64,000 nt of DNA from an uncultured Clostridia bacterium (GTDB taxonomy: Bacteria > Bacillota > Clostridia > Christensenellales > QALW01): NCBI GenBank assembly GCA_934434555.1, contig CAKRZX010000013.1:608-64607 (forward strand), in the 5' to 3' direction. The translations under genes and the position numbers were made by a program. The notes below the pieces were generated by a model. That model was not told where the DNA came from. It was given only the letters and a program-made list of their open reading frames with translations, and made no database searches. Below are positions 3,023 through 22,140 of the stretch, piece by piece (the first letter of the stretch is position 1; the number at the start of each line of letters is the position of its first letter).

Positions 3023-3170
3023 AAGAACCGACATCAACAATACATCATTCGCTTACAGTGTAAACCTATTAAAAATGCTCCTCGCTATGCAACTCATCAC
3101 CGAGGATGAATACGAAAGAATCACTCAGATCAGTGCCGAACATTACGGCGCTGATCTGATTTATGTCTGA
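3015..3170 (+). CDS. Small 51-aa ORF translationally coupled to mazF (unknown function)
   Basis: ATG at 3015 overlaps the mazF stop (AATGGATAA). It encodes MDKRTDINNTSFAYSVNLLKMLLAMQLITEDEYERITQISAEHYGADLIYV. It is shorter than the ORF-track cutoff. Confidence 0.4.
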   Translation: MDKRTDINNTSFAYSVNLLKMLLAMQLITEDEYERITQISAEHYGADLIYV

Positions 3171-3289
3171 AATCTTAATTCTCAAGTTTTTGCGAAAAAC
3201 CGCTGGAAGTATTCGAACTATTGTGGTATGGTGTGTCGTGCCGAAAGGCGAATAACAGCAAGGTGACCCCTTGCGGAAAGGAGAAAGAC

Positions 3290-4846: not shown

Positions 4847-5838
4847 GCAACAGAACACTGCCTTACGGATACTGCTATAAAAACGGCATAATTGCAATAG
4901 ACTCAAAAGAAAGCAAGGTGCTGAAACGAATATTCTCCGCATACCTTAACGGCGATTCGATGTTAACCATTGCCGAGCAGTTAAACAGAGAAAAAATCGA
5001 ATACGCAAGCGGCGTTATCGGTTGGAACAAAGGGCGGCTCAAGCACCTCATTGATAACCCACGGTATCTTGGCACAGAGGTATATCCGCAGATTATCGAG
5101 CAAGCGACTTATGAGAAAATACAAAAGGCAAAGCACAGTCGCAACACCCAAAAGGATACGGATAAGGCACAAGAGATATTCAGGCTGACCGTTCCCGTCC
5201 GATGCCCGATCTGCGGAAGCCTAATGCGACGCAGACATGACAGCAGATGCAAATGCCAAGAGCGTTGGACTTGTGAAAACAAAGAGTGCCGTTTGCGGAT
5301 TGAGATATCCGACGCTGAATTGCTGACCGCACTCTCTGATCTTCTCTCCACGGTAACAGCCGACAGCATCTCACTGCCTGCCGAAAAGCCCTATGAGCCA
5401 AGCACCGAGGCAATACGGTTGAACAACGAAATCAGCCGAATGCTTGATGCCGCAGAAATAGATAAGGCTATCCTACGAAACAAAATGGCAGAGTGCATTA
5501 GTCAAAAATACAGCGAACTCGGCAATGAGTGCTGTACGGCACACAAACTAAAAGCCGAACTCGGCAGCTTGTCCGATGTCACCGAAAGGCTGAATCGCAC
5601 GGTCAGCGAAATACGCCTACACCCCGACAAAACAGCAGACCTCATACTGCTGAACGGTCAGATTATACGAAAGGAGAAAATCCATGCAACAGACAGCGGT
5701 CGCTCCACAGAGGGTGGTGCGGGTAATCGAACCGACCATATCGGTCAGGGAGAGCATCAAAAACCATTATCGAGTCTTGCGTGTTGCAGCATACTGCCGA
5801 GTTTCCACGAAGCAAGAGGAACAACTCAACAGTTATGA
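4843..5838 (+). CDS. Recombinase-domain plus zinc-ribbon protein lacking the catalytic resolvase domain
   Basis: ATGA start/stop overlap with the upstream gene. LPYGY..IAEQLN..W....L..NPRYLG is the recombinase-domain signature, followed by CPICG..C..C zinc ribbon. There is no S-R catalytic N-terminus. The last 155 nt overlap the next gene out of frame. Confidence 0.7.
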   Translation: MSNRTLPYGYCYKNGIIAIDSKESKVLKRIFSAYLNGDSMLTIAEQLNREKIEYASGVIGWNKGRLKHLIDNPRYLGTEVYPQIIEQATYEKIQKAKHSRNTQKDTDKAQEIFRLTVPVRCPICGSLMRRRHDSRCKCQERWTCENKECRLRIEISDAELLTALSDLLSTVTADSISLPAEKPYEPSTEAIRLNNEISRMLDAAEIDKAILRNKMAECISQKYSELGNECCTAHKLKAELGSLSDVTERLNRTVSEIRLHPDKTADLILLNGQIIRKEKIHATDSGRSTEGGAGNRTDHIGQGEHQKPLSSLACCSILPSFHEARGTTQQL

Positions 5839-7321
5839 GAATCAGGTGGAACACTACACCGAGCGCATCAATTCGGAAAACGGATGGACGCTTGAAGGCA
5901 TCTACGCCGACAAGGGTATCTCCGGCACAAGCGTAAAAAACCGTGATGAATTCAATCGGATGATACGCCGATGCAAGCAAGGAAAAATCGACATGATCAT
6001 CACGAAATCCATTGCAAGGTTTGCGAGAAACACGGTGGACTGCTTGAAATATGTCCGGCTGCTCAACGACCTTGGTGTGGATGTCTACTTCGAGGAACAG
6101 GGAATCCACAGCAATCAGCCCGGCGCCGAGTTTTACATCACCATCTACGGCAGCATTGCCCAAAGCGAATCGGAAAACATCAGTGCCAATATCAAATGGG
6201 GCAAGGCTCAAAGTGCTAAGGAAGGTAAGGTTATATTCCAATATAAGAACTTCCTCGGCTACCGCAAGGGCGAGGACGGACAGCCCGAAATCGTCCCCGA
6301 AGAAGCCGAAACAATTTGCCTTATATATGACCGCTTTCTCGCAGGCGACAGCTTAAAAGGAATTGCAGAGCTGCTTGAAGAAAAGGGCATCAAAAGCCCG
6401 ACGGGAAAAGCTCAATGGCAGTTTTCAACGATACAGTCCATTCTCTCCAATGAAAAGTATAAGGGCGATGCCATTATCAATAAGACCTACATTACCGACT
6501 GCATCAGCAAAAAGGTTAGAGTAAATAACGGCGAACGTCCGAAATACTATGTAGAGAATAGTCACCCTGCCATTATCGACTCAGCCACCTTCGGCAGAGT
6601 CCAAGAGGAACTCGCAAGGCGTTCAGGTAAGCGCAAGGTCAGACAAAAAGCCAAAACCGAGCAAGGCAAATATTCAAGCAAATACGCTATGACAGAACTG
6701 CTCGTCTGCGGCGAATGCAAAACACCATACCGCCGATGCACTTGGACGGCAGGCGGCAAAAAGAAAATCGTATGGCGATGTATAAATCGTCTTGACTACG
6801 GCAAGAAATACTGCCACAACTCGCCGACCATAGAAGAAAGCATATTGCAAAAGGTTGTTATGACGGCAATCATGGAAACCGCCAATCAAAACACCGAGGT
6901 ACTGCGAACATTGAAACTGCATATCGGTATGGGATTAGAGGGAGAAAAGAGCAATGACAACAGCCTCGACCTGCAAGTGCGGATTGCCGAAATTGACGCA
7001 GAGTTCAGAAAAATGATTGATCGAGTATCCACAGAAACAGTGGAAGCCTTTGACGAGGAAACCGCAACTCGGCTCATGAACGAAAAAAGCCGTCTGCAAC
7101 AGCAGCTCGACAACATAGCCAACGCTGAGCAACGGCGAGAAAACGCAAAATCCCGACTCGATGATATCTATACTATACTGGACGGCATAAAAAACCGTCC
7201 GATGGAATACGATGACCAAATTGTCCGCCAACTGCTCGAATGCATAGTGGTCGACTCAAAAGAGCAGGTCACCGTAATATTCAAAGGCGGTCTCAAATCG
7301 GTGCAGCCGCTGACCGAATGA
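5684..7321 (+). CDS. Large serine recombinase
   Basis: Strong RBS AAGGAGAAAA precedes the ATG. Motifs: YCRVSTKQEEQ, ITKSIARFARNT, recombinase domain, zinc ribbon CGECKTPY..WRC, and a coiled-coil C-terminus. Confidence 0.9.
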   Translation: MQQTAVAPQRVVRVIEPTISVRESIKNHYRVLRVAAYCRVSTKQEEQLNSYENQVEHYTERINSENGWTLEGIYADKGISGTSVKNRDEFNRMIRRCKQGKIDMIITKSIARFARNTVDCLKYVRLLNDLGVDVYFEEQGIHSNQPGAEFYITIYGSIAQSESENISANIKWGKAQSAKEGKVIFQYKNFLGYRKGEDGQPEIVPEEAETICLIYDRFLAGDSLKGIAELLEEKGIKSPTGKAQWQFSTIQSILSNEKYKGDAIINKTYITDCISKKVRVNNGERPKYYVENSHPAIIDSATFGRVQEELARRSGKRKVRQKAKTEQGKYSSKYAMTELLVCGECKTPYRRCTWTAGGKKKIVWRCINRLDYGKKYCHNSPTIEESILQKVVMTAIMETANQNTEVLRTLKLHIGMGLEGEKSNDNSLDLQVRIAEIDAEFRKMIDRVSTETVEAFDEETATRLMNEKSRLQQQLDNIANAEQRRENAKSRLDDIYTILDGIKNRPMEYDDQIVRQLLECIVVDSKEQVTVIFKGGLKSVQPLTE

Positions 7322-7889: not shown

Positions 7890-7908
7890 TTTCGCAGAGT
7901 TCGTCACT
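7890..7908 (+). repeat. 19-bp repeat copy A (TTTCGCAGAGTTCGTCACT)
   Basis: Exact 19-mer, also present at 7993-8011 and inverted at 9423-9441. Confidence 0.9.
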
Positions 7909-7992
7909 AAGCGGATTGCACTGCAAGAGATCTGTTTTGTTTTTTTGTGTCAAAGCCTGTCGAAATCCGTCAAAACTCCGTAAATCAGGGCT

Positions 7993-8011
7993 TTTCGCAG
8001 AGTTCGTCACT
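7993..8011 (+). repeat. 19-bp repeat copy B
   Basis: Exact copy. Identity with inverted copy C extends to 20 bp. Confidence 0.9.
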
Positions 8012-8232
8012 CAACGAAAACGCAACATCTCTTACAAATCAATCCAATTATATCACAGCACTTTCAAAAAGGCAACCAAAATTTAGAAAAAAACAGAAAA
8101 TTTTTTCGTGAATCGGATTTGTGTATGTTGAAAGGGGGTGTTTTACAGCGATTTAAGGCGGCGGAATGTATCTGTGCAGTCAAATGCGCAGTCATGATAC
8201 ATATTTTCTTTTTGAAAAAAGGAGGATTTAAG

Positions 8233-9339
8233 ATGTCAAAAGGAGAGAACATTTTCAAAAGAAAAGACGGGCGTTGGGAAGCCAGGTATACCAAAGGATA
8301 TGAAATTTCGGGTAAGATAAAATACGGTTATTGCTACGGTAAAACTTATAAAGAGGCAAAGGACAAGGTTACAAAAATTAAGGCGGCGATAATAAACGGC
8401 ACGCCGACGGAGAATTCGCGGCGCAGATTTTCCTATTACTGCGACCTGTGGCTAAAAGACAGAAAAATATCGGTGCGGGAAGCGACTTACGTTAAGTATT
8501 CAGCGGTGGTAAAAAAGCATATTCTGCCGCGGCTCGGCGGCTGTTTCACCGCGGGAATCAACGAACCGGTGATAAACGCGTTTACCGACGAACTTCTTGA
8601 AACCGGACTTAAAGCAAAAACCGTACACGATATTCTTGTTATCCTTAACGGAATAATCCGCTTTGCGTCGGTTTCGTTTGCGGGCGTTTTTCCTCAGGTG
8701 AAAATTACGTATCCCAAAGAGAAGAAAAAGGAAATGCGCGTGCTTACGCGGGAAGAACAGGAAAGGTTTGTTGCGTACCTTTCCAAGGACGGGGACCCCT
8801 GTAAGTTCGGGGTGCTGCTTGCGCTTTACACGGGAATCCGCATAGGCGAACTGTGCGCGCTGAAATGGTCGGATATTTCACAAAAGGACGGCACGCTGTG
8901 CGTAAATTCCACTATGCAGCGCCTGTACGATACAAGCGAAAATTCCGGGAGCAAAACGCGCGTTGTTATGGGCGACCCGAAAAGCGACACGTCCGCAAGG
9001 GTGATACCCCTTACGGGACAGGCTGTATCTATGTGCGAAAAGATGAATCCCGGCGACGGCGACGCATTTGTTTTAACGGGGACGCATTTTTATATGGAGC
9101 CGCGTCTTTTGCAGTACAGAATAGAAAAATACACGCGGGATTGCGGGCTTGACGGCGTGCATTGCCACACGCTCCGCCACACATTTGCCACCCGCGCGGT
9201 GGAAGTGGGCTTTGAAATTAAATCGCTTTCGGAAGTTTTGGGGCACGCAAACACAACCATTACCCTTGAACGGTATGTGCATTCGTCAATGGAATTTAAA
9301 AGGAACAATATGAGTAAACTTGCCGCCGCGGGATTTTAA
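8233..9339 (+). CDS. Tyrosine recombinase/integrase with N-terminal AP2-like arm-binding domain
   Basis: ATG at 8233 follows AAAGGAGG. The N-terminal RKDGRWEARY motif is present. C-terminal catalytic motifs: TGIRIGELCALKW, HTLRHTFATR, LGHANTTITLERYVH. Confidence 0.9.
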   Translation: MSKGENIFKRKDGRWEARYTKGYEISGKIKYGYCYGKTYKEAKDKVTKIKAAIINGTPTENSRRRFSYYCDLWLKDRKISVREATYVKYSAVVKKHILPRLGGCFTAGINEPVINAFTDELLETGLKAKTVHDILVILNGIIRFASVSFAGVFPQVKITYPKEKKKEMRVLTREEQERFVAYLSKDGDPCKFGVLLALYTGIRIGELCALKWSDISQKDGTLCVNSTMQRLYDTSENSGSKTRVVMGDPKSDTSARVIPLTGQAVSMCEKMNPGDGDAFVLTGTHFYMEPRLLQYRIEKYTRDCGLDGVHCHTLRHTFATRAVEVGFEIKSLSEVLGHANTTITLERYVHSSMEFKRNNMSKLAAAGF

Positions 9340-9374
9340 CCGGCGCAGTCAAATTTTTCAGTCAAACGCAAAAC

Positions 9375-9408
9375 GGGTTGAAAGTTACCGCACTTTCAGC
9401 CCTTTTTT
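9375..9408 (+). terminator. Terminator after the integrase gene, located inside the repeat-bracketed segment
   Basis: The stem GGGTTGAAAGT / ACTTTCAGCCC is followed by TTTTTT. Confidence 0.75.
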
Positions 9409-9422
9409 ATGGGTTTTTATTT

Positions 9423-9441
9423 AGTGACGAACTCTGCGAAA
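9423..9441 (-). repeat. 19-bp repeat copy C (inverted)
   Basis: AGTGACGAACTCTGCGAAA is the exact reverse complement of copies A and B. Confidence 0.9.
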
Positions 9442-9585
9442 AAAGCAGACCGTGCTTTTTGGCAGTCGCCCGAGGGTAAAATGCGGGGGATGGCATTTTG
9501 CCGTCTGCGGGTAGTGAGTACTACCCAAAGAAGCGGGCACAGTTTAACCGAGAATGGGGGAATCGGTACGGAACAGAAAGAAACA

Positions 9586-10173
9586 ATGAAGCGCAATCTT
9601 ATGGAAAGTGCTGTCCGCGTTGTGGCAAGGGAGGGGCTTGAAAAAACAACAACCCGACTTATATCCCTTGAAGCCAAACTCAACGAGGCGTATCTTTACA
9701 GGTGCTTTGAGAATAAGGAACACTTGCTTGCGGAAACTTTTTATAACGAAGATATCCGCTTTGCGCACCATATTCAAAAAACGCTGCCTGTAATGCAGAT
9801 GTCGGGACTTACGTGGGAAGAAAAATGTTTTCTTCTGTGGAATTCCTGCTGGAATTTCATCATAAAACAGCCCGATGACTGCCGATTTTATATTCGCTAC
9901 TATTATTCCGCGAATTTCAGGAAGTATGCGTATGAGCGGCATATAAACTTTTTTAAGCCGCTTATCGAAAAAATTTCGTTTGCATTCAGGCGCGGCGTCA
10001 ATGTGGATATGCTTGTGCACCAGATCTTCGACACAATGCTTTCCTTTGCCGAGCGCGTTTTAAGCGGCGAAGTTGCGGACACGGAAGAAACAACCAAGAC
10101 GATGTTCAAACAGATTTTCGGTTTTGTGTCCATAAATGCCGTGCCGGAACTTATCTCCGGGGAGGCGCAGTGA
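9586..10173 (+). CDS. TetR/AcrR family transcriptional regulator
   Basis: The N-terminal HTH (AVRVVAREGLEKTTTRLISLEAKLNEAYLYRCFENKEHLL) is followed by a helical C-terminal domain. The listed ORF start at 9409 runs through repeat C and is unlikely; ATG 9586 or 9601 is more plausible. Confidence 0.75.
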   Translation: MKRNLMESAVRVVAREGLEKTTTRLISLEAKLNEAYLYRCFENKEHLLAETFYNEDIRFAHHIQKTLPVMQMSGLTWEEKCFLLWNSCWNFIIKQPDDCRFYIRYYYSANFRKYAYERHINFFKPLIEKISFAFRRGVNVDMLVHQIFDTMLSFAERVLSGEVADTEETTKTMFKQIFGFVSINAVPELISGEAQ

Positions 10174-10721
10174 TGCTTAAAAAAGTTTGGAATATCGTAA
10201 GCACGGTACTTGTTATAATCGTGGTAATACTTGCAGTCGCTCTTGTGGGCGTAAGGCTTGTGGGAATAAAAACCTATTCGGTTATGTCCGGTTCAATGGA
10301 GCCCGTATATCATACCGGTTCGCTTTTGTACGTTAAAAGCGTTGACCCGAAAGAACTGAAAACGGGCGATTCAATAACGTTTATGCTTGACGAAGACACC
10401 GTTGTAACCCACAGGATTATCGAAATCATACCCGATGACGAGGACGCGAACGTTATAAGATTTCTGACAAAGGGCGATGCCAACGACGCGCCCGACGGCG
10501 TTCCCGTTCACTGCAAAAACGTAATAGGAAAACCCGTGTTTTCCGTGCCGTATTTAGGCTATTTTGCGCATTTTGTGCAAAATCCGCCGGGGCTGTACCT
10601 TGCAATAGGCGCCGCGGCAATATTAGTGGTTCTTGTCTTTTTGCCCGACTTTTTTAAGGACGAAAAGAAAGAAATAAATCAAGGGCAAAAACAGCCCGAT
10701 AAATTCAAGGAGGATTTATGA
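10170..10721 (+). CDS. sipW: Signal peptidase I, SipW (archaeal/ER S26B) type
   Basis: N-terminal TM helix, then SGSMEP (catalytic Ser), VVTHRI (His), TKGDAN, and a C-terminal TM helix. The start (GTG 10170 or ATG 10173) overlaps the tetR stop, and the stop overlaps the next start. Confidence 0.9.
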   Translation: MMLKKVWNIVSTVLVIIVVILAVALVGVRLVGIKTYSVMSGSMEPVYHTGSLLYVKSVDPKELKTGDSITFMLDEDTVVTHRIIEIIPDDEDANVIRFLTKGDANDAPDGVPVHCKNVIGKPVFSVPYLGYFAHFVQNPPGLYLAIGAAAILVVLVFLPDFFKDEKKEINQGQKQPDKFKEDL

Positions 10722-11314
10722 AAACAAAAACAAAGGCACTTACACTGGCACTGTGCGCGATGTTACTTGTTGCTGCGTCCGTACTTACAACTCTGGCGTT
10801 CTTAACAAGTCACGACGAAGTAAAAAATACTTTTACCGTCGGCAAAGTTGCAATTACGCTTGACGAGGCAGAGGTTGATGAGTACGGAAAAGTGGTTTCC
10901 AACCAAGACCGCGTAAAGAAAAATGAGTACAAACTTATTCCGGGTCACAAATACGTAAAAGACCCCACCGTTCACTTTGCCGCGGGCAGCGAAGCAAGTT
11001 ACCTGTTTGTAGAAGTTAAAAACGGCATTGAAGCAATTGAAACGAACGAATCCGGCAAGACAATCGATGACCAGATAACCGGTAACGGTTGGACAGCGCT
11101 TGATGGTGAATCCGGCGTTTACTGGCAAAAGGTTGACGCAAATACAGGTGCAAAGGCAGAAGATTATAAAGTTTTCGGCACATTCACACTTGCCGATGAT
11201 GCCGCGGTAGAAAACTATAAAGACGCAAACATCACAATTACCGCATACGCAATTCAGGCAGACGGCTTTGACACTCCCGCAGCGGCGTGGGACGAAGCAA
11301 AAACAGCGAAATAA
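10718..11314 (+). CDS. TasA/camelysin-like secreted protein with SipW-type signal peptide (paralogue 1)
   Basis: The N-terminus ..LLVAASVLTTLAFLTSHDEVKNTFTVGKVAITLDE carries the SipW-cognate signal. It also has the PGHKYVKDP motif and the C-terminal AYAIQADGF motif. ATGA overlap with sipW. Confidence 0.85.
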   Translation: MKTKTKALTLALCAMLLVAASVLTTLAFLTSHDEVKNTFTVGKVAITLDEAEVDEYGKVVSNQDRVKKNEYKLIPGHKYVKDPTVHFAAGSEASYLFVEVKNGIEAIETNESGKTIDDQITGNGWTALDGESGVYWQKVDANTGAKAEDYKVFGTFTLADDAAVENYKDANITITAYAIQADGFDTPAAAWDEAKTAK

Positions 11315-11366
11315 GGCGAAAACCTTGTTTATATACCCAAATATATAAAGAAAGGAGGCAAAGCCG

Positions 11367-11924
11367 ATGAAAAAGAAAATATGGATATCGGTTGCGGCAA
11401 TCGCACTTATCCTTTGCTGTGCCATAGGCGGTACTCTTGCTTGGCTTAAAACAAGCACAACCCCAGTTACAAACACCTTTACTGTCGGAGATATCAACAT
11501 AGAACTTAAAGAAACCACCACCGACTACAAAATGGTGCCGGGCAACAAGATTGACAAAGACCCTAAGGTTACGGTTAAAGAGGGCTCCGAGGCGTGCTGG
11601 CTGTTCGTTAAGGTTGGTGAATCCGCAAACTTAACGGATTTTATCGAGTATAAGGTTAATACAGCCGAGGGCGAATGGAAATTGGTTCCGGGCGAAACTC
11701 ACGTTTACTACCGTGAAGTAGATGCCGATACCGCCAAAGTAGGCAAAACCTATTCAATCCTTACGGACAACAAGGTAAAAGTTTTTGATACCGTTACCAA
11801 AGCAGACCTTAACGGATTGAATGAAGCAACCTATCCCACACTTATCTTTACCGCTTATGCCGTGCAGAAAGAGCACTTTGATACAGCAGCCGCTGCATGG
11901 GAACAAGCACAGAATAAAAACTAA
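11367..11924 (+). CDS. TasA/camelysin-like protein with SipW-type signal (paralogue 2)
   Basis: GGTLAWLKTSTTPVTNTFTVGDINIELKE, PGNKIDKDP and AYAVQKEHF are present. RBS AAAGGAGG. Confidence 0.85.
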   Translation: MKKKIWISVAAIALILCCAIGGTLAWLKTSTTPVTNTFTVGDINIELKETTTDYKMVPGNKIDKDPKVTVKEGSEACWLFVKVGESANLTDFIEYKVNTAEGEWKLVPGETHVYYREVDADTAKVGKTYSILTDNKVKVFDTVTKADLNGLNEATYPTLIFTAYAVQKEHFDTAAAAWEQAQNKN

Positions 11925-11951
11925 AATTTATTTGAAAGGACTTTTAAGACA

Positions 11952-12707
11952 ATGACTAAGAAAAAAATAGTTACCATCTGCCTTGCGGCAATCCTTGTTG
12001 TTATGGCAGTAGCAGGCGCGTCGCTTGCATATCTTACCGATACCAAGGACGCAACAAACACCTTTACGGTTGGTAATGTTAAAATCGAACTCCTTGAATC
12101 AAGTTTGCACCGCGAAAATGCGGGCGTTGCCAACGGCACAACAAGCGATTCGGAACTTTGGTCCGATGTAGCAAAAGAGGGCACAGGCAACGAAAACAAG
12201 TATAAAGCCGGCGACACTTTCTATACCGATGCTCAGATTGAAGCAGACGCGGCAGAATACGAGTGCGACAACGTAAAACTTCTTCCCGGGCAGTCCTATC
12301 ACAAAATGCCCTACGTAAAGAACACCGGTTCGGAAGACGCATATATCCGTATCCGTGTAATGTTCCCCGCAAACCTTGATACAGCAATACTCAACAGCAG
12401 TATGTATACCACTACCGCTATAAAGAGCGGCGAGTTCACATTTGCCTACGATGACAGTGCATCGGTTGAAAGAGACGGCGTAAAATACAATGTTTATACA
12501 TTCACCCGTAACGAGGCTCTTAACCCCGGCGAATTGACCTACTGGAATGTATGGGGCACAGTTCATATGGACGCAGATGTTACAAATGAAGAACTTGCTG
12601 ACCTGTTCAAGGACAGCAAAAACTACAAAGTTCTTGTTGAGGCTGACGCTATTCAGGCAGAGGGCTTTGCAGATGTAACCGAGGCATTCAAGGCCTTTGA
12701 TAAATAA
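11952..12707 (+). CDS. TasA/camelysin-like protein with SipW-type signal (paralogue 3)
   Basis: AGASLAYLTDTKDATNTFTVGNVKIELLE, PGQSYHKMP and ADAIQAEGF are present. Confidence 0.85.
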   Translation: MTKKKIVTICLAAILVVMAVAGASLAYLTDTKDATNTFTVGNVKIELLESSLHRENAGVANGTTSDSELWSDVAKEGTGNENKYKAGDTFYTDAQIEADAAEYECDNVKLLPGQSYHKMPYVKNTGSEDAYIRIRVMFPANLDTAILNSSMYTTTAIKSGEFTFAYDDSASVERDGVKYNVYTFTRNEALNPGELTYWNVWGTVHMDADVTNEELADLFKDSKNYKVLVEADAIQAEGFADVTEAFKAFDK

Positions 12708-12726
12708 TATTTTGAGGTGATTTGTT

Positions 12727-13395
12727 ATGACCAAAAAGAAAGTAATAACTCTTGCGCTTGTGGTTATCATCGCCGTTGCGGCAATAACAAGTGCATCACT
12801 TGCGTATTTTACCGACACCAAAACCGCTAAAAACACCTTTACAATGGGTGACGTTAAGATTACACTTGACGAGGCGGCAGTTGACGATAACGGTCACGCC
12901 ATTGACGGCGACCGCGTTAAAGAAAACAATTACGGCATCGACGCCGCTTTCCCCGGCGCAGTGCTTGATAAAGACCCCACTGTTCACAACAACGGCAAGA
13001 ATTCAGCCTATATCCGCGCTACGGTTAATGTAAGCGACTGGATGAATCTTGTAGCCGCATATTATCCTGACTTTAAGGAAACTTTCCCCAATGACGGTTA
13101 CAAGGCCGCCCTCAATCTTCTTGTGGGCGAACTTGGCGATGGCTGGTCGGTTGTTGAAGTAGTTGCGGGCGATGTATTTACCATCGGTCAGTTTGACGCA
13201 AAATTCGTGCTTAAATATGACGGTGTTCTTGCTCCCGGTGAGAGCACAACGCCCATGTTTGAACACATCACTATTCCTACCGGCATTGATAATGCCAATG
13301 CGTCAAGTTTTGACGAGGTAAAGATTGTTGCACAGGCTATCCAGGCAAACAGTTTTGATTCCTGGGAAGCGGCTTTTGCGGCATATGATGCGTAA
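12727..13395 (+). CDS. TasA/camelysin-like protein with SipW-type signal (paralogue 4)
   Basis: TSASLAYFTDTKTAKNTFTMGDVKITLDE, PGAVLDKDP and AQAIQANSF are present. Confidence 0.85.
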   Translation: MTKKKVITLALVVIIAVAAITSASLAYFTDTKTAKNTFTMGDVKITLDEAAVDDNGHAIDGDRVKENNYGIDAAFPGAVLDKDPTVHNNGKNSAYIRATVNVSDWMNLVAAYYPDFKETFPNDGYKAALNLLVGELGDGWSVVEVVAGDVFTIGQFDAKFVLKYDGVLAPGESTTPMFEHITIPTGIDNANASSFDEVKIVAQAIQANSFDSWEAAFAAYDA

Positions 13396-13420
13396 TTGAA
13401 TCCCTATTTCTGATTGACTT

Positions 13421-13486
13421 GCACCCGTTTTATCGGGTGCAGGTCATAGGGAAACACCTGAACTGCACAGGTGTTCCCCTATGACC
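13421..13486 (+). promoter_or_regulatory. Two adjacent hairpins inside the operon (possible attenuator or processing site)
   Basis: The first hairpin is GCACCCG-N6-CGGGTGC. It is immediately followed by a 19-bp stem GGTCATAGGGAAACACCTG / CAGGTGTTCCCCTATGACC with one mismatch. No T-run follows. Confidence 0.5.
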
Positions 13487-13527
13487 CCCCACATACTTAA
13501 TTTATTACTGCGAAAGGAGAGTGGGTT

Positions 13528-14103
13528 ATGAAACTTTGTTGGAAACAGAAAGCGGTTGTTCTCTCGGCGGTTGCGATTATCGGCGTAACGGCGGCGGCAG
13601 GCACCGCGGCGTATTTTACGGCTGAAAGCAAGGCGACAAACGTAATTACGGCGGGCAGCATCAAAATCGAATTACAGGAAAAAATGCTTTTACCCGACGG
13701 CGAAAAAACGGTGCCCTTTGAGGACAGAATAAACGTTATGCCCGGGGAAGAAGTATCAAAGATAGTACAGATAAAAAATACCGGCGGACAGGACGCGTGG
13801 ATTCGCGTTGACGTCAAAAAAACAATAGAACTTGCAAACGGTGAATTCACCGACGGCGACGGTTTGACGTTCACACTGAATTCCGATTTCTGGACCGAAA
13901 AGAACGGTTTTTATTATTATAACAAAAATCTTGCTCCGGGGCAAGAGACAGAACCGCTTTTTTCGTCGGTTTTGTTCGATAAAAATATGGGAAATGACTT
14001 TCAGAACTCAAAAGCGGTAATAACTGTTACGGCTTACGCCGCGCAGACCGCCCACAACGGCACATCGGCGCTTGACGCCCCGCTCTGGCCTCAGGCTGAT
14101 TAA
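13528..14103 (+). CDS. TasA/camelysin-like protein with divergent SipW-type signal (paralogue 5)
   Basis: AAGTAAYFTAESKATNVITAGSIKIELQE, NVMPGEEVSKIVQIKNTG and TAYAAQTAH are present. RBS GAAAGGAG. Confidence 0.8.
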   Translation: MKLCWKQKAVVLSAVAIIGVTAAAGTAAYFTAESKATNVITAGSIKIELQEKMLLPDGEKTVPFEDRINVMPGEEVSKIVQIKNTGGQDAWIRVDVKKTIELANGEFTDGDGLTFTLNSDFWTEKNGFYYYNKNLAPGQETEPLFSSVLFDKNMGNDFQNSKAVITVTAYAAQTAHNGTSALDAPLWPQAD

Positions 14104-14108
14104 GGAGG

Positions 14109-17100
14109 TTGACTATGATTAAATCACATTCCGGCTTTGTTAAAGCCGTTGCACTGCTTCTGTGCGCGGCGGTAATTATTACGTCTTTCTGCCTCGGAAA
14201 CATCGGGCTCGTGGCAGAAGCGGAGGGAGAAACCGTTACAATAACGGTCAATTATGTATACGAATCAAATAATGCAATGGTGGCACAGCCGTATCGTGCG
14301 CAGATTGCAAAGAATACGGAATTCGTTAAAAGTATTGAAGTGCCGAAATTGCTGAATTATTCGATACCGAGTGATTTGGCAGAGGGACTTAGTGAAAACG
14401 TTACGCTTAATCAGGACGCAGATACAAAAAAGTATACGCTGGCATTTAACATCAATTCTGCTGAAAGCGATATTACGGTTACCCTCTACTATGTGGCGGG
14501 AACGGCAAAGTATACGGTGTATCACTATTATCAGAACCTTGAAAATGATAAGTATGATGATGAAGAACCGAAGATTATTGAACTTGTAGGAGATATTGAT
14601 GCATACACAGAGGCTGTTGCAAACAACAAGCCCGGCTACCACTGCAAAGGTATTCCTCAAACAACAGTTGCGGCGGACGGCACAACTACGGTTGAAATCT
14701 ACTATGACCGCGATTATTATACGGTTATATTTGATGTAAACGGCGGTATAAATGGCCCCGAGCCCATATACGCAAGATACGGAACACAGTTTCAGGCAAA
14801 AGATATAATTGAGCCGACGCGTAAGGGATATACATTCCTTGGGTGGACGCCTGTTTTGTCAGATACGGTTACCATTGAAGACAATACAACATATGTCGCA
14901 CAGTGGCAGCCCGAAAAGGGTCAGGCAGACTACAGTATTGTTATTTGGGGACAGAACGCTAACGATGACGAGTACTCATATCTTGGTTCCAGCGATGCTT
15001 GGGGCAATGTGGGCAAAGATATTACTTGGAATGAAAGTACGCTTATAAGCCACGTGCATGCCGATGAGTGCCGGAAACTTACGTGCGACAAAGAGGAGCA
15101 TACACATGATGCAAAGTGTTATACGTGCAGCCATGTACACGGCTTGACTTGCTACGGTTTAAATGCAAACAGTACGAGTACTAACCCAAATGATAATACT
15201 GCATGGTGGAATAGCAGTAAACCCGAAACCTATTTCGAGGCATTGGGAATTGAAGACGGATATCTTTATTATGACGATGAGAATGCGGCAGTTCTTTCAA
15301 AAGATAACTACTATTTTAGATTCAACGGAAAATACTATTCTATTGATGAATCTCTTTTCAATAAATTAAAAGGAGATGAAGTCGGCAAAACCGATGATGG
15401 AACTTCACGATACACTGACTATTACTATAAGTACAGTATAAATCAAGCAGGTATGTCCTGTACCCATACACATACTGATGATTGTTATTCATGCGGCAAA
15501 GCGGAACACACTCACGATTCTTCTTGCTTTAAACTTGTATGCGGGTTAAAAGATACACCTAAACAGTATATGAAAGATATCAAACCGTCCGATAGTTTAT
15601 GGAAGTTTGAAAGAAGCGATACTGTAACGGTTAATGCTGATGGTACATCAGTGTTAAATGTGTACTTCAAAAGAAAAGAGTTCACACTTGAATTCCGTAA
15701 GCAGTATTCTAACAGCAATGACTACGGCACAATTAAAGCGCGATGGGGTAAGAACATAGATTCAGAATACAAAGCGGTTGTTGAAAGAGCCGGAGGAGAT
15801 AATTTTTGGAGTAAAAATAAGGATGCAAGCAATCCATGGACAAACTACATCGGTGTGATGCCACAGGAGAATATCACCTATTATAACTATGTGCCCAATG
15901 GTAGTGGTAAGAGCACAATGACTTATTATGGCCAAGATTTGAACGATAGTTATCAGATAATATTTTCAGTCACGTTCAAAGGAACGAACTTAACAGTTAC
16001 TGATGAAGACCGTTATCAGTTTGAGGGATTCATTTACGACCATGGAACAAATAATGGGGCAAATTGTGACGGAGCAGAATTCTACTACAACCGCAAACTT
16101 TATAAACTGGAATTCTATTCAGTATCAGCCAGCGTGCTTGATAAATCCAAAGATGTGAAGTATCAGGATTCATTGAGTCAATATGATTACATACCGACAA
16201 ATAAGCCTGAAACGGTTGAAAAAGATGCTGTGTTTGCGGGGTGGTATCAGAACCCGCAATGCACAGGCGAAAGATACGACCTTGCAAGCCATATAATGCC
16301 GTCAAACAACATATCGCTTTATGCAAAATGGGTAAACGGATTGTATACGGTAACTACCTATACCGATGAAACTATGAAAGAACTTTATACATATGACGGT
16401 TACAGCGGAATTCAGAGAGATATAGAAAAATATACTCTTGCAAGCGAGCCTACGGCACCCAAAAAGGACGGCTATGTTTTTGTGGGCTGGTTCTATAAAG
16501 ACGGAGATGCGGAAAAACTTTTCTCGTTTACAATGACGATAACAAGAGATTATGACCTGTATCCCAAGTTTTCAGAGCCAACATATCTTAACTATACTGT
16601 TCATTACTATATTAAGAACACAACAACGAAAGTTGCCGAAGACAAAGAAAGTACGGCACTGGTAGGAACAACGGTTACCGAAAAGGCGAAAATGGGTTCA
16701 GAATTAAATCTTGTTTTGCCAGATATGCGGAGCAAGTATTTCCCGGATAAAACAAGCACAAGCGTAAAAATAGACAAAGAGGGTATAGAAATTATTTTCT
16801 ATTACAAAGAGGCAACAAAGGTTAAATACACAGTTTATTATCAGGATGAAAACGGAAACGACTTGCACGAGCCGAAATACGAGGAAACAGACCTTTCGGT
16901 TGTGACGGAGGAGTATATTCACATTGATAATTATTCGCCGATTCAGTATCAAATTGAACTGGCTTTGTCAACCGATGAAGAATCAAACATAATTATATTT
17001 GTTTATAAACCTATGTTTTCCACCCTCACAATCCAAAAATCCGGCAGTGAGGATATAGACGAAAATCAGACGTTTATCTTCCGCGTTAAGGGTAAGGATA

Positions 17101-17351
17101 CGGATGAAAACACGAAGAACATCGACCTGACCGTAACGGTGCACGGAAACTCACAGACAACCGTTTCCGAACTTCCCGTTGGCGAGTATACGGTTGAAGA
17201 AGTTACTTCCTGGTCGTGGCGGTATACACCCGACGAAATCAAAAAGACCGTTGATGTGGTTGCCGGAGGTTCGTCTGTTTTGTTTAAAAATGAACGAACA
17301 GAAGATAAATGGCTTAACGGCGACAATTACAGTGTAAACATCTTCAAGTAA
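14109..17351 (+). CDS. Large secreted multidomain adhesin-like protein (MucBP-like modules, Listeria-Bacteroides repeats, two Cys/His clusters, C-terminal SpaA/CnaB-like Ig domain); no LPXTG
   Basis: It has an ordinary signal peptide (..VAEAEGE). Repeat signatures include YTFLGWTP, FAGWYQNPQCTG and YVFVGWFYKDG. The C-terminus reads TLTIQKSGSEDIDENQTFIFRVKG..LPVGEYTVEEV. There is no sorting signal at the end. Confidence 0.8.
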   Translation: MTMIKSHSGFVKAVALLLCAAVIITSFCLGNIGLVAEAEGETVTITVNYVYESNNAMVAQPYRAQIAKNTEFVKSIEVPKLLNYSIPSDLAEGLSENVTLNQDADTKKYTLAFNINSAESDITVTLYYVAGTAKYTVYHYYQNLENDKYDDEEPKIIELVGDIDAYTEAVANNKPGYHCKGIPQTTVAADGTTTVEIYYDRDYYTVIFDVNGGINGPEPIYARYGTQFQAKDIIEPTRKGYTFLGWTPVLSDTVTIEDNTTYVAQWQPEKGQADYSIVIWGQNANDDEYSYLGSSDAWGNVGKDITWNESTLISHVHADECRKLTCDKEEHTHDAKCYTCSHVHGLTCYGLNANSTSTNPNDNTAWWNSSKPETYFEALGIEDGYLYYDDENAAVLSKDNYYFRFNGKYYSIDESLFNKLKGDEVGKTDDGTSRYTDYYYKYSINQAGMSCTHTHTDDCYSCGKAEHTHDSSCFKLVCGLKDTPKQYMKDIKPSDSLWKFERSDTVTVNADGTSVLNVYFKRKEFTLEFRKQYSNSNDYGTIKARWGKNIDSEYKAVVERAGGDNFWSKNKDASNPWTNYIGVMPQENITYYNYVPNGSGKSTMTYYGQDLNDSYQIIFSVTFKGTNLTVTDEDRYQFEGFIYDHGTNNGANCDGAEFYYNRKLYKLEFYSVSASVLDKSKDVKYQDSLSQYDYIPTNKPETVEKDAVFAGWYQNPQCTGERYDLASHIMPSNNISLYAKWVNGLYTVTTYTDETMKELYTYDGYSGIQRDIEKYTLASEPTAPKKDGYVFVGWFYKDGDAEKLFSFTMTITRDYDLYPKFSEPTYLNYTVHYYIKNTTTKVAEDKESTALVGTTVTEKAKMGSELNLVLPDMRSKYFPDKTSTSVKIDKEGIEIIFYYKEATKVKYTVYYQDENGNDLHEPKYEETDLSVVTEEYIHIDNYSPIQYQIELALSTDEESNIIIFVYKPMFSTLTIQKSGSEDIDENQTFIFRVKGKDTDENTKNIDLTVTVHGNSQTTVSELPVGEYTVEEVTSWSWRYTPDEIKKTVDVVAGGSSVLFKNERTEDKWLNGDNYSVNIFK

Positions 17352-17363
17352 GGAGGCGGCAAA

Positions 17364-17918
17364 ATGAAAAACAGAAAAATTACGGCATTGATTATTTCGC
17401 TGCTTCTTGTGCTTGTGCTGGGCGCGGGCGCGACACTTGCTTATATTCTCACTAAGACGGACGCAAAGCAGAATACTTTTACTCCGGCGGTCGTTTCGTG
17501 CGAGATTACCGAAACGTTTAACGGCAGCACAAAATCGAACGTAAAAATCAAAAACACGGGAAACACGGGAGCGTATATCCGCGCAAAAATCGTTGTTTCC
17601 TGGGCAAAGGATAATGCGGACGACGAACAAACCGTTTCGGCGGTTGTTCCGAAGGAAAAAGTTGATTATGTGATTGCGATTGACGAGGAAAAATGGATTA
17701 AGGGCAGTGACGGGTATTACTATTTTAAGAATCCCGTTGCCATGAACGGAGAAACCGACGCGCTTATTTCTTCCTGTGCGCTTGCCGAAAACGCAAAAGT
17801 GCCCGAGGGATATCACCTTTCAGTTGAAATAATTGCTTCGGCGTTGCAGAGCACACCCGCAGATGCCGTAAGAGACACTTGGGGCGTGACAATCGCAGAC
17901 GAAATTTCAAAGGGGTGA
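17364..17918 (+). CDS. TasA/camelysin-like protein with SipW-type signal (paralogue 6)
   Basis: AGATLAYILTKTDAKQNTFTPAVVSCEITE and KIKNTGNTGAYIRAKIV are present. Confidence 0.8.
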   Translation: MKNRKITALIISLLLVLVLGAGATLAYILTKTDAKQNTFTPAVVSCEITETFNGSTKSNVKIKNTGNTGAYIRAKIVVSWAKDNADDEQTVSAVVPKEKVDYVIAIDEEKWIKGSDGYYYFKNPVAMNGETDALISSCALAENAKVPEGYHLSVEIIASALQSTPADAVRDTWGVTIADEISKG

Positions 17919-17923
17919 AGATA

Positions 17924-18562
17924 ATGAAGAAAAGAATTTTCGGCTTTCTTGCTGCGGCGGTAATGATTGCTGTTTGCTCACTTACCGCGTTTGCCCACGG
18001 CACCGTCACATATGACGGAAGCGCAAAGGATTTCATTTTCGCCCCGGGAAGCGAATATTCGCCTACCGACCTATTTACCGACTTCAAAAACGTTATGCCC
18101 GGCGATTCGGTAACGCAAAAAGTAACGGTAAACAACAGGATAGACAAAAATGTAAAAATCAAAGTGTATGTGCGCTCACTGGGCGCGGAAGAGGGGTCGG
18201 AAGAGTTTTTATCAAAACTGAACCTTACGGTAAAACAGGAGGGCAACTCAAAACTGTTTGCCGCGCCCGCCGACCAAACGGCGCAACTTGCCGACTGGGT
18301 TTATCTCGGCACGATATATTCCGGCGGTAAAATAGACCTGGACGTTACTCTTGATGTTCCCATTGAACTTGAAAACCGCTTTCAGGACGCAATAGGATAT
18401 CTTGATTGGGAGTTCAAGGTTGAAGAACTTCCGGTGGAAAAGAACGACCCCAAACCTTTGGGCGACGCACCGCAATATCTGCTTTACGGCGTGCTTATCG
18501 GCGCGGTTGTGCTTATGGTTATTGTTCTTGTTGCCGTTCGCCGCCGCAGACAGGACGACTGA
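17924..18562 (+). CDS. TasA-like body with ordinary signal peptide and C-terminal TM anchor (paralogue 7)
   Basis: ATG at 17924. The signal reads ..SLTAFAHG. NVMPGDSVTQKVTVNN resembles paralogue 5. The C-terminus is KPLGDAPQYLLYGVLIGAVVLMVIVLVAVRRRRQDD. Confidence 0.7.
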   Translation: MKKRIFGFLAAAVMIAVCSLTAFAHGTVTYDGSAKDFIFAPGSEYSPTDLFTDFKNVMPGDSVTQKVTVNNRIDKNVKIKVYVRSLGAEEGSEEFLSKLNLTVKQEGNSKLFAAPADQTAQLADWVYLGTIYSGGKIDLDVTLDVPIELENRFQDAIGYLDWEFKVEELPVEKNDPKPLGDAPQYLLYGVLIGAVVLMVIVLVAVRRRRQDD

Positions 18563-18564
18563 AA

Positions 18565-18843
18565 ATGAGCATATTTAACAGAATGTTCAAAAATCGGGGG
18601 GGGGCAGACCCTTTGGATAAAGATAATCTGCCCGAAAGAACGATTGAAAATTGCGTTCTGTGCGGCAAACCCACTCCGTATTTTTCCGATACGCCCGTAA
18701 ATATGCGTAAGTTTTATATTTCGGGCGCGGGACAACTCTGCAAAGAGTGCTACGCGGAAACGGTATTCGGCAGCCGCCACGAAACCGATATGAGCGACGG
18801 CGAACTGATGTATTTAATTGAATTGTGCAGGCAGAAAACATAA
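18565..18843 (+). CDS. Small zinc-ribbon-like protein (CxxC..CxxC)
   Basis: The ORF starts 3 nt after the preceding stop. CVLCGK...CKEC are present. Confidence 0.5.
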   Translation: MSIFNRMFKNRGGADPLDKDNLPERTIENCVLCGKPTPYFSDTPVNMRKFYISGAGQLCKECYAETVFGSRHETDMSDGELMYLIELCRQKT

Positions 18844-19049
18844 TGGAATTTATTGCTGAAAACAAAAGAGTGGATATTAAACGCTGTCACCTTTGCACAA
18901 GGCTTGATTTAAGGGACTGCAATTCCTGTAAAGACGGGCTTGTGTGCGAAAACGGCAACTGCGATTCGTTTGAGCCGGTAAAAAAGGAAAACATAACGGT
19001 ACGTATCGGCTGTCTGATTGAAAAAATAGGCATATGCATGGGGAAGTGA
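18843..19049 (+). CDS. Small Cys-rich protein
   Basis: TAATG overlap with the preceding ORF. The 68-aa product has nine Cys (CHLC, CNSC, C..C). Confidence 0.45.
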   Translation: MEFIAENKRVDIKRCHLCTRLDLRDCNSCKDGLVCENGNCDSFEPVKKENITVRIGCLIEKIGICMGK

Positions 19050-19055
19050 AACGAA

Positions 19056-19280
19056 ATGGACTTGTTTGAATATATCCGTACACTTTTGGGCTGTGAGTAT
19101 ATTTCGGATATCCGCTTGCCCGAAAACCGCACTCTTGCGCGCAGAGTGTTTTCGAGAATAAACCTTTCCTGGTACACCCAAAGGGAAATCGATGATATGA
19201 AAGAGTATTTGGGAATATCCCGCTGCAAAAAGGAGAAAACAACAGGCGAAACAAGTAAAGCGCCGAGTTTGGCACAATAA
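19056..19280 (+). CDS. Small hypothetical protein
   Basis: Co-directional ORF followed by the terminator at 19311-19345. Confidence 0.4.
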   Translation: MDLFEYIRTLLGCEYISDIRLPENRTLARRVFSRINLSWYTQREIDDMKEYLGISRCKKEKTTGETSKAPSLAQ

Positions 19281-19310: not shown

Positions 19311-19345
19311 AAATCCCCCGATTTTGTCGGGGGATTTCGTTTTAG
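19311..19345. terminator. Bidirectional terminator hairpin
   Basis: AAATCCCCCG-N7-CGGGGGATTT is flanked by A-runs and T-runs and lies between convergent genes. Confidence 0.7.
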
Positions 19346-21537: not shown

Positions 21538-22140
21538 TTATTTATTATTTTTGTATTCTTTCATTAGGCCTGTTATTTTCTTTTTATATGCATTGTGTGA
21601 CCGTCTGTTTTGTGGATAGTTTCTTAGTATGTCTATATAATACCAAATTGGATTCATTCCTTTTGATTCGTTTATTGCTATTTTTATCGAGTCTTTTAGA
21701 TTTCTTCCTACTATTACTCTGCATATGTATGTTGTTGTTTCGTTTTTTTCGTTGAATTCCGTGTGCGTCCATACATCTATATTTCTTACTTTCCCTGTTT
21801 TAGAAGTAGACCATCCAAAATCTCTATAACTTGTCCTTGTTCTATTTTTTACGTATTCATTTATCAATTCAGTTATTTTCTTTTTATATGCTCTATCGGT
21901 TCGCCTGTTTTGTGGATAGTTTCTCAGTACGTCTAGATAATACCAAATTGGGTTCATTCCTTTTGATTCATTTACCGCTATTTTTATAGATTCTTTCATA
22001 TTCCTTCCCACTATTACTTTACATGTGTATGTCGTTGTTTCATTTTCCTCGTCCACCTGTGTTCTGGTTATTACGTCTATGTTTCTTACTTTCCCTGTTC
22101 TCGAAGTAGACCATCCAAAATCTCTATACGTTGTTCTCAT
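21538..22140 (-). CDS. Hypothetical protein made of two tandem ~100-aa repeats (prophage accessory gene)
   Basis: The two halves are roughly 80 percent identical (YRDFGWSTS.TGKVRNIDV...NETTTY.C.VIVGRN...NESKGMNPIWYY..LRNYPQNRR). Confidence 0.7.
   Translation of the reverse strand: MRTTYRDFGWSTSRTGKVRNIDVITRTQVDEENETTTYTCKVIVGRNMKESIKIAVNESKGMNPIWYYLDVLRNYPQNRRTDRAYKKKITELINEYVKNRTRTSYRDFGWSTSKTGKVRNIDVWTHTEFNEKNETTTYICRVIVGRNLKDSIKIAINESKGMNPIWYYIDILRNYPQNRRSHNAYKKKITGLMKEYKNNK

Follow-up and report, generated by a model that had tools for sequence, protein, structure and literature searches.

A candidate phase-variable operon for SipW-processed, BsaA/TasA-class surface fibres in gut Clostridia

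The window analysed here is a 64,000-nucleotide (nt) stretch of contig CAKRZX010000013.1 from an uncultured Clostridia bacterium. Its element of interest is a close-packed run of ten + strand genes, in the order tetR, sipW, P1 to P5, BIG, P6 and P7, that may encode a surface fibre built from SipW-processed proteins of the BsaA/TasA class. An earlier note, prepared from the sequence alone, had already described ten packed co-directional genes with overlaps at the tetR/sipW and sipW/P1 junctions; in the open reading frame (ORF) list of the window all ten lie in that arrangement, each intact, and both overlaps are 4 nt long.

Operon layout and the upstream invertible segment

The first gene of the operon, tetR (9586-10173, + strand), codes for a TetR-family regulator (TetR_N, E 5.4e-9), for which gene calls also give alternative starts at 9601 and 9409. 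It is followed by sipW (10170-10721, + strand), encoding a SipW-type signal peptidase I of the archaeal/endoplasmic reticulum (ER) type, or S26B type. The signature on which that assignment was originally made is present (SGSMEP at amino acid (aa) 40, THR at aa 80 and GDAN at aa 102), and the protein scores 117.9 bits with TIGR02228, the model of archaeal/ER-type signal peptidases I (cut-off 51.85). With NF046067, the Bacillus SipW equivalog, it reaches 117.1 and falls below the cut-off of 190; therefore it is not a Bacillus SipW orthologue. The earlier note had recognised neither a sortase nor a TapA/YqxM-like gene. Likewise, no sortase was found in the 64-kilobase (kb) window by phmmer with a class B sortase linked to a related locus or by a TLxTC motif search, and none of the ten operon proteins matches the TapA/YqxM model. 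The transcription unit probably ends at a bidirectional terminator-like hairpin with a stem of 12 base pairs (bp) at 19311-19337, the first strong one 3' of P7. Between P7 and this hairpin (18565-19280) are three small ORFs of about 76, 68 and 74 aa in metagenome gene calls, which match no family. They are kept in contigs of the same species and may share the transcript of the operon; two CxxC pairs are present in the first.

Upstream of tetR lies a 1.5-kb segment bounded by inverted repeats. The left repeat, IRL (TTTCGCAGAGTTCGTCACTAA, 7890-7910), is 21 nt long and 100% complementary to the right repeat, IRR (9421-9441). A second, imperfect copy at 7992-8024 (33 nt, 88% complementary to 9410-9442) may be an alternative recombination site. 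Within the segment are a + strand gene for a tyrosine recombinase (integrase) at 8233-9339 (Phage_integrase, E 8.5e-22; Phage_int_SAM_3, E 1.6e-9) and, on the - strand at 8047-8075, an outward promoter-like site that matches the consensus (TTGCCT, a 17-nt spacer and TG-n-TATAAT). An intrinsic terminator-like hairpin (9375-9402, + strand) with an 11-bp stem and a T-run, also inside the segment, lies between the integrase gene and tetR and faces the operon in this orientation.

The segment occurs in both orientations in this species. In one assembly from another sample (L001) the inner 1.5 kb is inverted and 99% identical, the operon side is collinear and the inversion break falls exactly at IRL; eight other same-species assemblies have the orientation of the window. 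The promoter-like site, read from 8075 to 8047, is directed away from the operon in the window; in L001 it faces tetR from about 300 nt upstream. In a different species (L029), perfect 21-nt repeats with the same core (TTTCGCAGAGTT) surround the integrase gene, and an outward promoter-like site lies at a similar position. Together these features suggest that 7890-9441 is a recombinase-bearing inverton serving as a phase switch for the operon, with the window probably in the OFF orientation. Damaged copies of the locus also occur among same-species contigs, with P3 split into two ORFs (L092 and L098), P4 and P5 truncated (L099) or the integrase partly deleted (L114); judging from these contigs, some strains have a locus that is in decay or fixed in one orientation.

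The BsaA-like paralogues and the large secreted protein

Six proteins of the operon, all encoded on the + strand, are BsaA-like: P1 (10718-11314; 198 aa), P2 (11367-11924; 185 aa), P3 (11952-12707; 251 aa, with a long insertion), P4 (12727-13395; 222 aa), P5 (13528-14103; 191 aa), which is the paralogue type with the widest conservation, and P6 (17364-17918; 184 aa, without the PG hairpin). Their mature N-termini have the form aromatic-[F/L]-x7-8-N-x-[F/I], and in six of six the x-N-x-[F/I] pattern begins 10-11 residues past the putative cleavage-site Ala, which is Ala27 in P1. In all six, Glu occupies position N+13 exactly and a conserved Lys follows the PG turn. The resulting residues are N37/E50/K81 in P1, N36/E49/K64 in P2, N36/E49/K118 in P3, N36/E49/K82 in P4, N38/E51/K78 in P5 and N37/E50/K57 in P6.

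Judged by motif position and published residue numbers, this Asn-Glu-Lys set resembles N35, E56 and K74 of BsaA. The donor strand of BsaA spans residues 28-38, of which V33 and F37 are buried; N35 and the K74 of the following subunit become bonded, with E56 as the catalyst, and mutation of N35, E56 or K74, each alone, ends the formation of polymers stable to heat and sodium dodecyl sulfate (SDS) (PMC11580942). At the position corresponding to V33, four of the six window paralogues have Val or Ala. Conservation extends well beyond the window. Among 312 paralogues of related loci from about 80 species, the donor Asn is present in 302, the C-terminal Gln is 95% conserved, and Glu and Lys are about 85-100% conserved inside each orthogroup. 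All 33 ungapped sequences among the 36 P1 orthologues have the triad unchanged, P3 has N, E and K in 34/34, and P6 has N and E in 51/52. The shared N-terminal, PG....K and C-terminal A-x-A-x-Q motifs that had been pointed out in the window are thus seen in the alignment and conserved in these 312 relatives.

Family models place the paralogues near SipW substrates, with scores of varying strength. TIGR04088, the NCBIfam model of the SipW-cognate signal peptide region (cut-off 19), is passed by P1 (21.0), P3 (33.8), P4 (37.5) and P5 (25.6); P2 is slightly under (17.0), and P6 is unreported yet aligns with the same motif. With the BsaA family model, TIGR04090, P6 scores 46.6 (E 3.4e-12), P5 46.1 (E 4.8e-12) and P4 25.0 (E 1.3e-5), all below the curated cut-off of 60 bits, so that P4 to P6 are, by these scores, BsaA relatives outside the curated subfamily. 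PF12389 (Peptidase_M73/camelysin; cut-off 22.5) is narrowly passed by P2 (23.4), P3 (22.8) and P4 (24.4), P5 fails at 20.0, no match was found in P1 or P6, and the matches span the first 45-85 residues only, that is, the signal and donor region.

A profile of the seven related window proteins (P1 to P7) found no TasA or BsaA relative among sequences of the Protein Data Bank (PDB), and a fold search was therefore needed. The AlphaFold2 model of P5, from alignment A3, has a predicted local distance difference test (pLDDT) of 82.5 with a confident beta-sandwich core, and its donor segment (residues 25-40) is disordered, with pLDDT below 50. In Foldseek the best of 350,542 PDB chains was the TasA fibre 8aur (E 1.8e-3, template modelling score (TM-score) 0.45); the archaeal bundling pilus 7ueg came at rank 14. 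The family models and this fold match bear out the earlier proposal that the paralogues are SipW-cognate and TasA-like; of the profiles suggested for checking it, the SipW-cognate model is favourable, and Peptidase_M73 is marginal and confined to the signal/donor region. Individual scores are weak, and it is reasonable to regard P1 to P6 as BsaA/TasA-class SipW substrates.

Between P5 and P6 lies BIG (14109-17351, + strand; 1080 aa), a putative secreted adhesin with an ordinary signal peptide. The Listeria-Bacteroides repeats ascribed to it are found by Pfam as Flg_new (E 2.4e-19). The MucBP-like modules also ascribed to it gave no Pfam match even at E<=5, leaving a fold-level likeness of its C-terminal region to MUB repeats (Foldseek rank 39). 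DUF5979 is a weak match (20.5 against a cut-off of 25). BIG has no LPXTG, and no sorting signal was detected in BIG or in P1 to P6.

The C-terminal region of BIG is more informative. Its AlphaFold2 model (pLDDT 85.8) contains two confident beta domains that end at residue 163, and Foldseek matches it to streptococcal pilins and CnaB domains (best E 2.5e-6; 52 matches at E<=1e-3), in keeping with the SpaA/CnaB-like Ig domain without LPXTG that had been read from the sequence. An alignment that includes database fragments (A4) has K77, E131, N161, W168, L169 and N177 invariant. The first three are K977, E1031 and N1061 of BIG and fall in the CnaB/SpaA-like domain (17016-17297, + strand; aa 970-1063), where they would fit the intramolecular isopeptide triad of CnaB domains.

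After this domain comes a C-terminal tail, TEDKWLNGDNYSVNIFK (17298-17348, + strand; aa 1064-1080), with W1068, L1069 and N1077 invariant, which is predicted as coil outside the fold (pLDDT falling from 64 to 49). A C-terminal module of the form LTIxK ... YTVTE ... WSWRY ... FxNxR, followed by the tail WLxGDxxxxNxF, is present in 40 of 62 large proteins. The spacing W-L-x7-N-x-F of the tail equals that of the subunit donors (an aromatic residue, Leu or Phe, seven residues, Asn, any residue, Phe), with which it also shares a place outside the fold, invariant positions and predicted disorder. Moreover, the tail accompanies a P6-like gene in 39/43 loci versus 0/17 loci in which a P5-like gene follows (Fisher p = 1.5e-11, phylogeny uncorrected), and in every case P6 lies between the tailed large protein and P7. 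A position-specific scoring matrix (PSSM) was built from the 312 donors. A 19-residue window could not fit, as the tails stop just past N-x-F; with a 12-residue window the tail was the best segment in only 8/40 proteins, and its median score (-5.2) showed no excess over the background of unrelated long ORFs (-4.6). Because of the spacing, the invariance, the disorder and the co-occurrence with P6-like genes, the tail may dock on P6, possibly as a donor-strand mimic, an idea to which we give rather less than even odds.

BIG also has two clusters rich in Cys and His, at 15051-15146 (aa 315-346; HVHADECRKLTCDKEEHTHDAKCYTCSHVHGLTC) and 15483-15566 (aa 459-486; CTHTHTDDCYSCGKAEHTHDSSCFKLVC), which have no Pfam match and resemble metal-binding or disulfide knots; a large protein 3' of P7 in locus L062 has comparable stretches. 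At the start of the window, a 296-aa ORF (54-944) with a Flg_new repeat (E 7.2e-8) may encode a further surface protein or its terminal part.

The anchor candidate P7 and the related loci

The last gene, P7 (17924-18562, + strand; 212 aa from its true ATG, identical to protein P0001), encodes a protein with an ordinary signal peptide and a C-terminal transmembrane helix followed by RRRRQDD. In profile comparisons by hhalign its family matches that of P5 with 96% probability (E 4.7e-9, 98 columns), and those of P4 and P3 with 96% and 93%. The match to the paralogues begins at the PG....K strand; the first 50 residues show no match to the donor region, with Asp or Glu where the Asn would be. P7 is therefore predicted to have a BsaA-like core without an Asn donor motif, that is, to be a true, divergent seventh paralogue without a SipW-type donor. 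Its description in the earlier note as a membrane-anchored seventh paralogue is thereby upheld, and P7 is a candidate base or anchor subunit. The family is large, with 3150 relatives in a word-indexed protein database and 1302 clusters at 50% identity in an exhaustive search at E<=1e-3. P7 itself has no significant Pfam match, and a precomputed Pfam domain is present in 0/120 relatives among the matches listed.

Most P7 orthologues appear to be sortase substrates. Their C-termini run ...DPKPP[Q/K/P]TGD, about 20 hydrophobic residues and a K/R-rich tail; about three quarters combine [P/L/A/S]PxTG with a transmembrane helix and a K/R tail, and a regular expression finds xPxTG in 67/88 tails. Orthologue tails pass the srtB_target model TIGR03063 (29.2 and 33.7; cut-off 18.15) and LPXTG_anchor (18.5; cut-off 15.9). 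Sortase genes lie near P7 in six loci, immediately 3' in three and about 1 kb downstream in the other three, and one sortase tested from each placement proved to be class B in both cases (186 and 165 bits; cut-off 153.75).

In the window, the corresponding motif is the degenerate PKPLGD (18449-18466, + strand), which reads PKPPxTGD in orthologues. It has been destroyed by a two-residue deletion and a T-to-L change, at a position where 78/82 orthologues have Thr, and window P7 matches no sorting-signal model at E<=1. The same DPKP--LGD is found in an 85%-identical relative, with the helix and the RRRRQDD tail retained. By this comparison the missing sorting motif of window P7 is a derived loss in its lineage and no trait of the family. 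The fibre had been proposed to be sortase-independent, and for the family as a whole this fails: most P7 orthologues carry a sorting signal of the sortase-B type, class B sortases are linked to some of them and the window copy represents a loss. Polymerisation itself is expected to be sortase-independent.

Scanning species-representative genomes with the P7 alignment gave 147 relatives, from which 80 loci were fetched; with eight near-identical contigs, 88 loci were examined. The sources of the 80 fetched loci are Oscillospiraceae, Lachnospiraceae, Ruminococcaceae, Acutalibacteraceae, Faecousia, Hespellia stercorisuis, Solibaculum intestinale and others. The whole operon is also present, nearly identical, on human gut metagenome contigs, and a 72%-identical version has the same ten genes. 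Two layouts recur. The long form has an optional TetR gene, SipW, three to six paralogues, a large protein (750-2547 aa), a P6-like gene and P7; the short form has one or two SipW genes, a P4-like gene, a large protein, a P5-like gene, P7 and an extra paralogue. P7 lies directly 3' of a paralogue in 88/88 loci, and a large ORF holds the same position in each locus mapped in detail, even where similarity to BIG is undetectable. A survey of synteny across Clostridia had been suggested, and the layout does recur in the 80 fetched loci. Likewise, of the tip/shaft/base logic read from the gene order, the order is found to be fixed across related loci and the attachment of BIG to the fibre remains conjectural.

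Extra SipW-signal paralogues after P7 were seen in short-form loci (L042, L049, L051, L059, L063-L067, L071-L073, L077, L078 and L083-L088); they keep the Asn and do not keep the Glu and Lys, and several of these loci have two tandem sipW genes.

Several features suggest that the operon is mobile among gut Clostridia. P7 relatives at 50-70% identity occur in several families, integrases flank the operon in several species and one lies directly upstream in several relatives, and in the 72% variant genes for TnpV, a helix-turn-helix (HTH) protein and more integrases lie 3' of the operon. In L005-L009, L027, L028 and L036-L038, P7 is directly followed by a protein of about 220 aa with CRCDCGN zinc-ribbon-like repeats and an AP2-like C-terminal region, often with genes for TnpV, an HTH protein and an integrase after it; it resembles a DNA-binding protein of mobile elements and seems to move together with the operon. 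One P7-type locus, L054, is on a contig labelled Phascolarctobacterium succinatutens, of the Negativicutes (CAVHZB010000088.1), and reflects either horizontal transfer or a binning error.

In the block at 2402-7321, a gene for a MazF-like toxin and a small SHOCT-like gene accompany three genes for large serine recombinases, one of them truncated. The block was considered as part of the system and rejected, as it is absent from a Hadza contig (L098) with the same integrase-operon junction and elsewhere lies beside many unrelated genes (L105-L112); probably it represents the end of an independent mobile element that inserted next to the switch. On the other side of the operon, a - strand ORF of 200 aa (21538-22140) without a Pfam match consists of two near-identical 100-aa halves with the repeat ...YRDFGWSTS.TGKVRNIDV...NESKGMNPIWYY.D.LRNYPQNRR....

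Assembly, alternatives and relation to known systems

Given the above, the explanation we favour, with a probability of about 60%, is that the locus is a mobile operon, probably phase-variable, that encodes a BsaA/TasA-class surface fibre processed by SipW, in a conserved multi-component variant present in many gut Clostridia. The subunits would be exported via Sec, and cleavage by SipW would free their N-terminal strands. Each strand would then enter the open beta-sheet of the next subunit by donor-strand exchange, and a Glu-catalysed isopeptide bond between Asn and Lys would lock the contact. P7 would accept a strand and, as it has no Asn-bearing donor, the fibre would end with it at the cell. 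In relatives, a class B sortase would join P7 to peptidoglycan; in the lineage of the window, where the PPxTG is destroyed, P7 would remain in the membrane, held by its transmembrane helix. The adhesin would sit at the distal end by means of its CnaB-like domain and W-L-x7-N-x-F tail, probably docked on P6 as an adaptor. Expression would be switched by inversion of the 1.5-kb segment, with its own tyrosine recombinase and outward promoter.

The polarity proposed here follows the growth model of BsaA, in which the free N-terminal strand of the polymer enters a newly exported, still membrane-tethered subunit. Under that model the oldest subunit would be distal with its groove empty, an adhesin tail that supplies a strand would cap this groove and form the tip, and the anchor-bearing P7, able only to accept, would stop growth at the cell.

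Several points weigh against the fibre interpretation. No polymer, cross-link or fibre has so far been observed for any protein of the operon family, and the model does not fix the order or polarity of the subunits. Equivalence of the triads is judged by motif position rather than from an aligned BsaA; the match of P5 to TasA is weak (E 1.8e-3, TM-score 0.45), membership in the TasA/BsaA models is marginal (TIGR04090 below 60, PF12389 limited to the N-terminal 45-85 residues) and the seven-protein profile picks up no TasA chain among PDB sequences. P7 lacks the conserved Glu at the paralogue position, which makes a covalent lock onto P7 uncertain, and by PSSM the likeness of the BIG tail to the donors is no better than background. 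As for the switch, the inversion is seen in one of nine assemblies, L001, and there at one of its two junctions; the promoter is a consensus match only, and such sites are no more numerous in the region than in shuffled sequence. Finally, in C. perfringens BsaB is outside the BsaA polymers and BsaC is secreted separately, so co-operonic proteins need not be parts of a fibre.

A more ambitious version of the same interpretation is tentative, and in its entirety doubtful. Here the operon family would represent a third adhesive pilus architecture of Gram-positive bacteria: a shaft of several BsaA/TasA types joined by strand exchange and the Asn-Lys lock, a swappable adhesin held covalently on P6 by its tail mimic, and an acceptor-only P7 as the sole client of a class B sortase, all phased by an inverton and spread horizontally.

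It is also possible, though unlikely, that the operon codes for co-regulated and physically separate products, namely one or more matrix fibres, a free large protein like BsaC and a separately anchored P7, with no tip, shaft and base. The precedent of C. perfringens is consistent with this, as BsaB was found only as monomers or dimers, not covalently in BsaA polymers, and BsaC is secreted alone; BIG has no recognisable BsaA-like domain, neither BIG nor P7 has a SipW-type signal, and the similarity of tail and donor lacks statistical support. However, the position of the large gene is fixed in related loci while its body varies freely, the invariant disordered tail would be hard to account for on a free protein, and this tail is found almost only where a P6-like gene is present. 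In addition, P7 is homologous to the fibre subunits and directly follows one in all 88 loci.

It is improbable that the locus is silenced or decaying in the window genome and functional elsewhere in the family, with the switch OFF and the anchor motif lost. The loss of PPxTG in P7, against Thr in 78/82 orthologues, a promoter that points away from the operon in 8/9 same-species assemblies, and the split P3, truncated P4/P5 and partly deleted integrase of some same-species contigs would all fit such decay. However, all ten window ORFs are intact, and the OFF state in bulk DNA is normal for phase-variable loci. The motif-less P7 is also kept at 85-100% identity in several samples with its transmembrane helix and charged tail intact, which points to a working membrane-anchored form. 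Finally, it is very improbable that the paralogues are monomeric secreted beta-sandwich proteins with a SipW-type signal and no fibre (for example camelysin-like or carbohydrate-binding), as the generic fold, the CBM3, cohesin and arrestin-like domains near TasA in Foldseek and the marginal family matches would allow, since the Asn of the disordered segment, the Glu, the Lys and the C-terminal Gln are near invariant, a pattern to be expected of a strand and lock between subunits and not of a monomer, no PDB chain matches better than TasA and the match to the BsaA family model extends past the signal region.

Among characterised systems, the fibre proposed for the window is most readily compared with the BsaA fibres of the C. 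perfringens sipW-bsaABC(RSD) operon (Obana 2020, PMC7395162; PMC11580942). Both loci have SipW followed by BsaA/TasA-like paralogues, an x-N-x-F donor, the Asn-Glu-Lys set and a large secreted protein, and most C. perfringens strains encode a BsaB paralogue with LPXTG beside a sortase gene, a proposed anchor with which P7 may be compared. Unlike C. perfringens, which has one triad-bearing paralogue, the window has six; its large protein carries Flg_new repeats, a CnaB-like domain and a conserved tail in place of a vWA domain; and P7, which belongs to a distinct family, has an ordinary signal peptide and no Asn donor motif. Control also differs, with the two-component system BsaRS in C. perfringens and a TetR regulator plus an invertible segment in the window, whose operon is known from its genes alone.

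The SipW-TasA-TapA system of B. subtilis (PMC9674648, PMC10151520) offers a similar parallel. Like the tapA-sipW-tasA operon, the window would have SipW-dependent export, a beta-sandwich subunit and N-terminal donor-strand exchange. TapA caps or nucleates one fibre end by giving a strand, and the same logic is proposed here for the adhesin tail. Unlike the proposed window subunits, however, TasA lacks an Asn-Glu-Lys triad and forms fibres that come apart in SDS. B. subtilis has one major subunit, with neither a large adhesin nor an anchor subunit of the sortase type, and the window has no TapA homologue. TasA-CalY heteropili with CapP have been characterised in B. cereus (bioRxiv 10.1101/2024.02.27.582368; Sci Adv 2026, PMC13082335). 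The sipW-tasA-calY system is likewise SipW-dependent, has more than one TasA-like paralogue and polymerises without a sortase; it differs in having two paralogues and a chaperone-like factor, no adhesin and no wall-sorted base, and the outline and abstract report no isopeptide triad.

Other pili share the overall plan. As in the SpaA and Spy0128 sortase pili, there is a logic of tip adhesin, shaft and base, a CnaB-type fold in the adhesin and, in relatives of the window operon, a base predicted to be attached by sortase. Unlike in those pili, LPXTG is missing from P1 to P6 and the adhesin, a class C pilus sortase is absent, and the links would be strand exchange and a spontaneous isopeptide bond. 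Chaperone-usher pili likewise have Ig-like subunits, N-terminal donor strands and tip, adaptor and terminator subunits encoded in one operon; in contrast, the window operon has no chaperone, usher or outer membrane to cross, its subunits are unrelated to theirs in sequence and a covalent lock is proposed. The upstream segment resembles hin-fljBA of Salmonella, fimS of E. coli, the cwpV and flagellar switches of C. difficile and other gut invertons in having short inverted repeats and an outward promoter, here a candidate one, beside a surface operon. Like the Hin system it encloses its own recombinase gene; unlike Hin, which is a serine recombinase, that of the window is a tyrosine recombinase.

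The earlier note regarded a heteropolymeric fibre of this kind as uncharacterised, a claim that holds in part. Kivimaki et al. (2025, PMC11580942) noted that BsaA/TasA genes often share operons with genes for sortases and for LPxTG, SpaA-domain and choice-of-anchor proteins, and the same preprint remarks, from bioinformatics, that multiple BsaA/TasA paralogues suggest heteropolymers formed by donor-strand exchange, so that such operons had already been predicted. In the literature we found no experimental account of a system of this sort, nor any report of an inverton 5' of a SipW/TasA-type operon. New here are the fixed three-part layout, the P7 anchor family with its predicted sortase-B signal, the candidate docking module of the adhesin with its link to P6, the putative triads in six subunits and the probable switch.

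The adhesion structures of the dominant gut Clostridia, that is, Oscillospiraceae, Lachnospiraceae and Ruminococcaceae, are poorly known. If the interpretation favoured here is true, these bacteria would share a widespread modular pilus family, with about 1300 clusters of P7-like anchors at 50% identity, that combines the shaft chemistry of biofilm matrix fibres, anchoring through the sortase pathway and a swappable adhesin whose docking module is shared. It would join TasA-type matrix fibres and sortase pili, as a rule the subjects of separate fields, and the predicted donor, catalytic and acceptor positions would supply testable residues for engineered self-locking protein fibres. For the human gut commensals that carry the operon, a phase-variable colonisation factor would have been identified.

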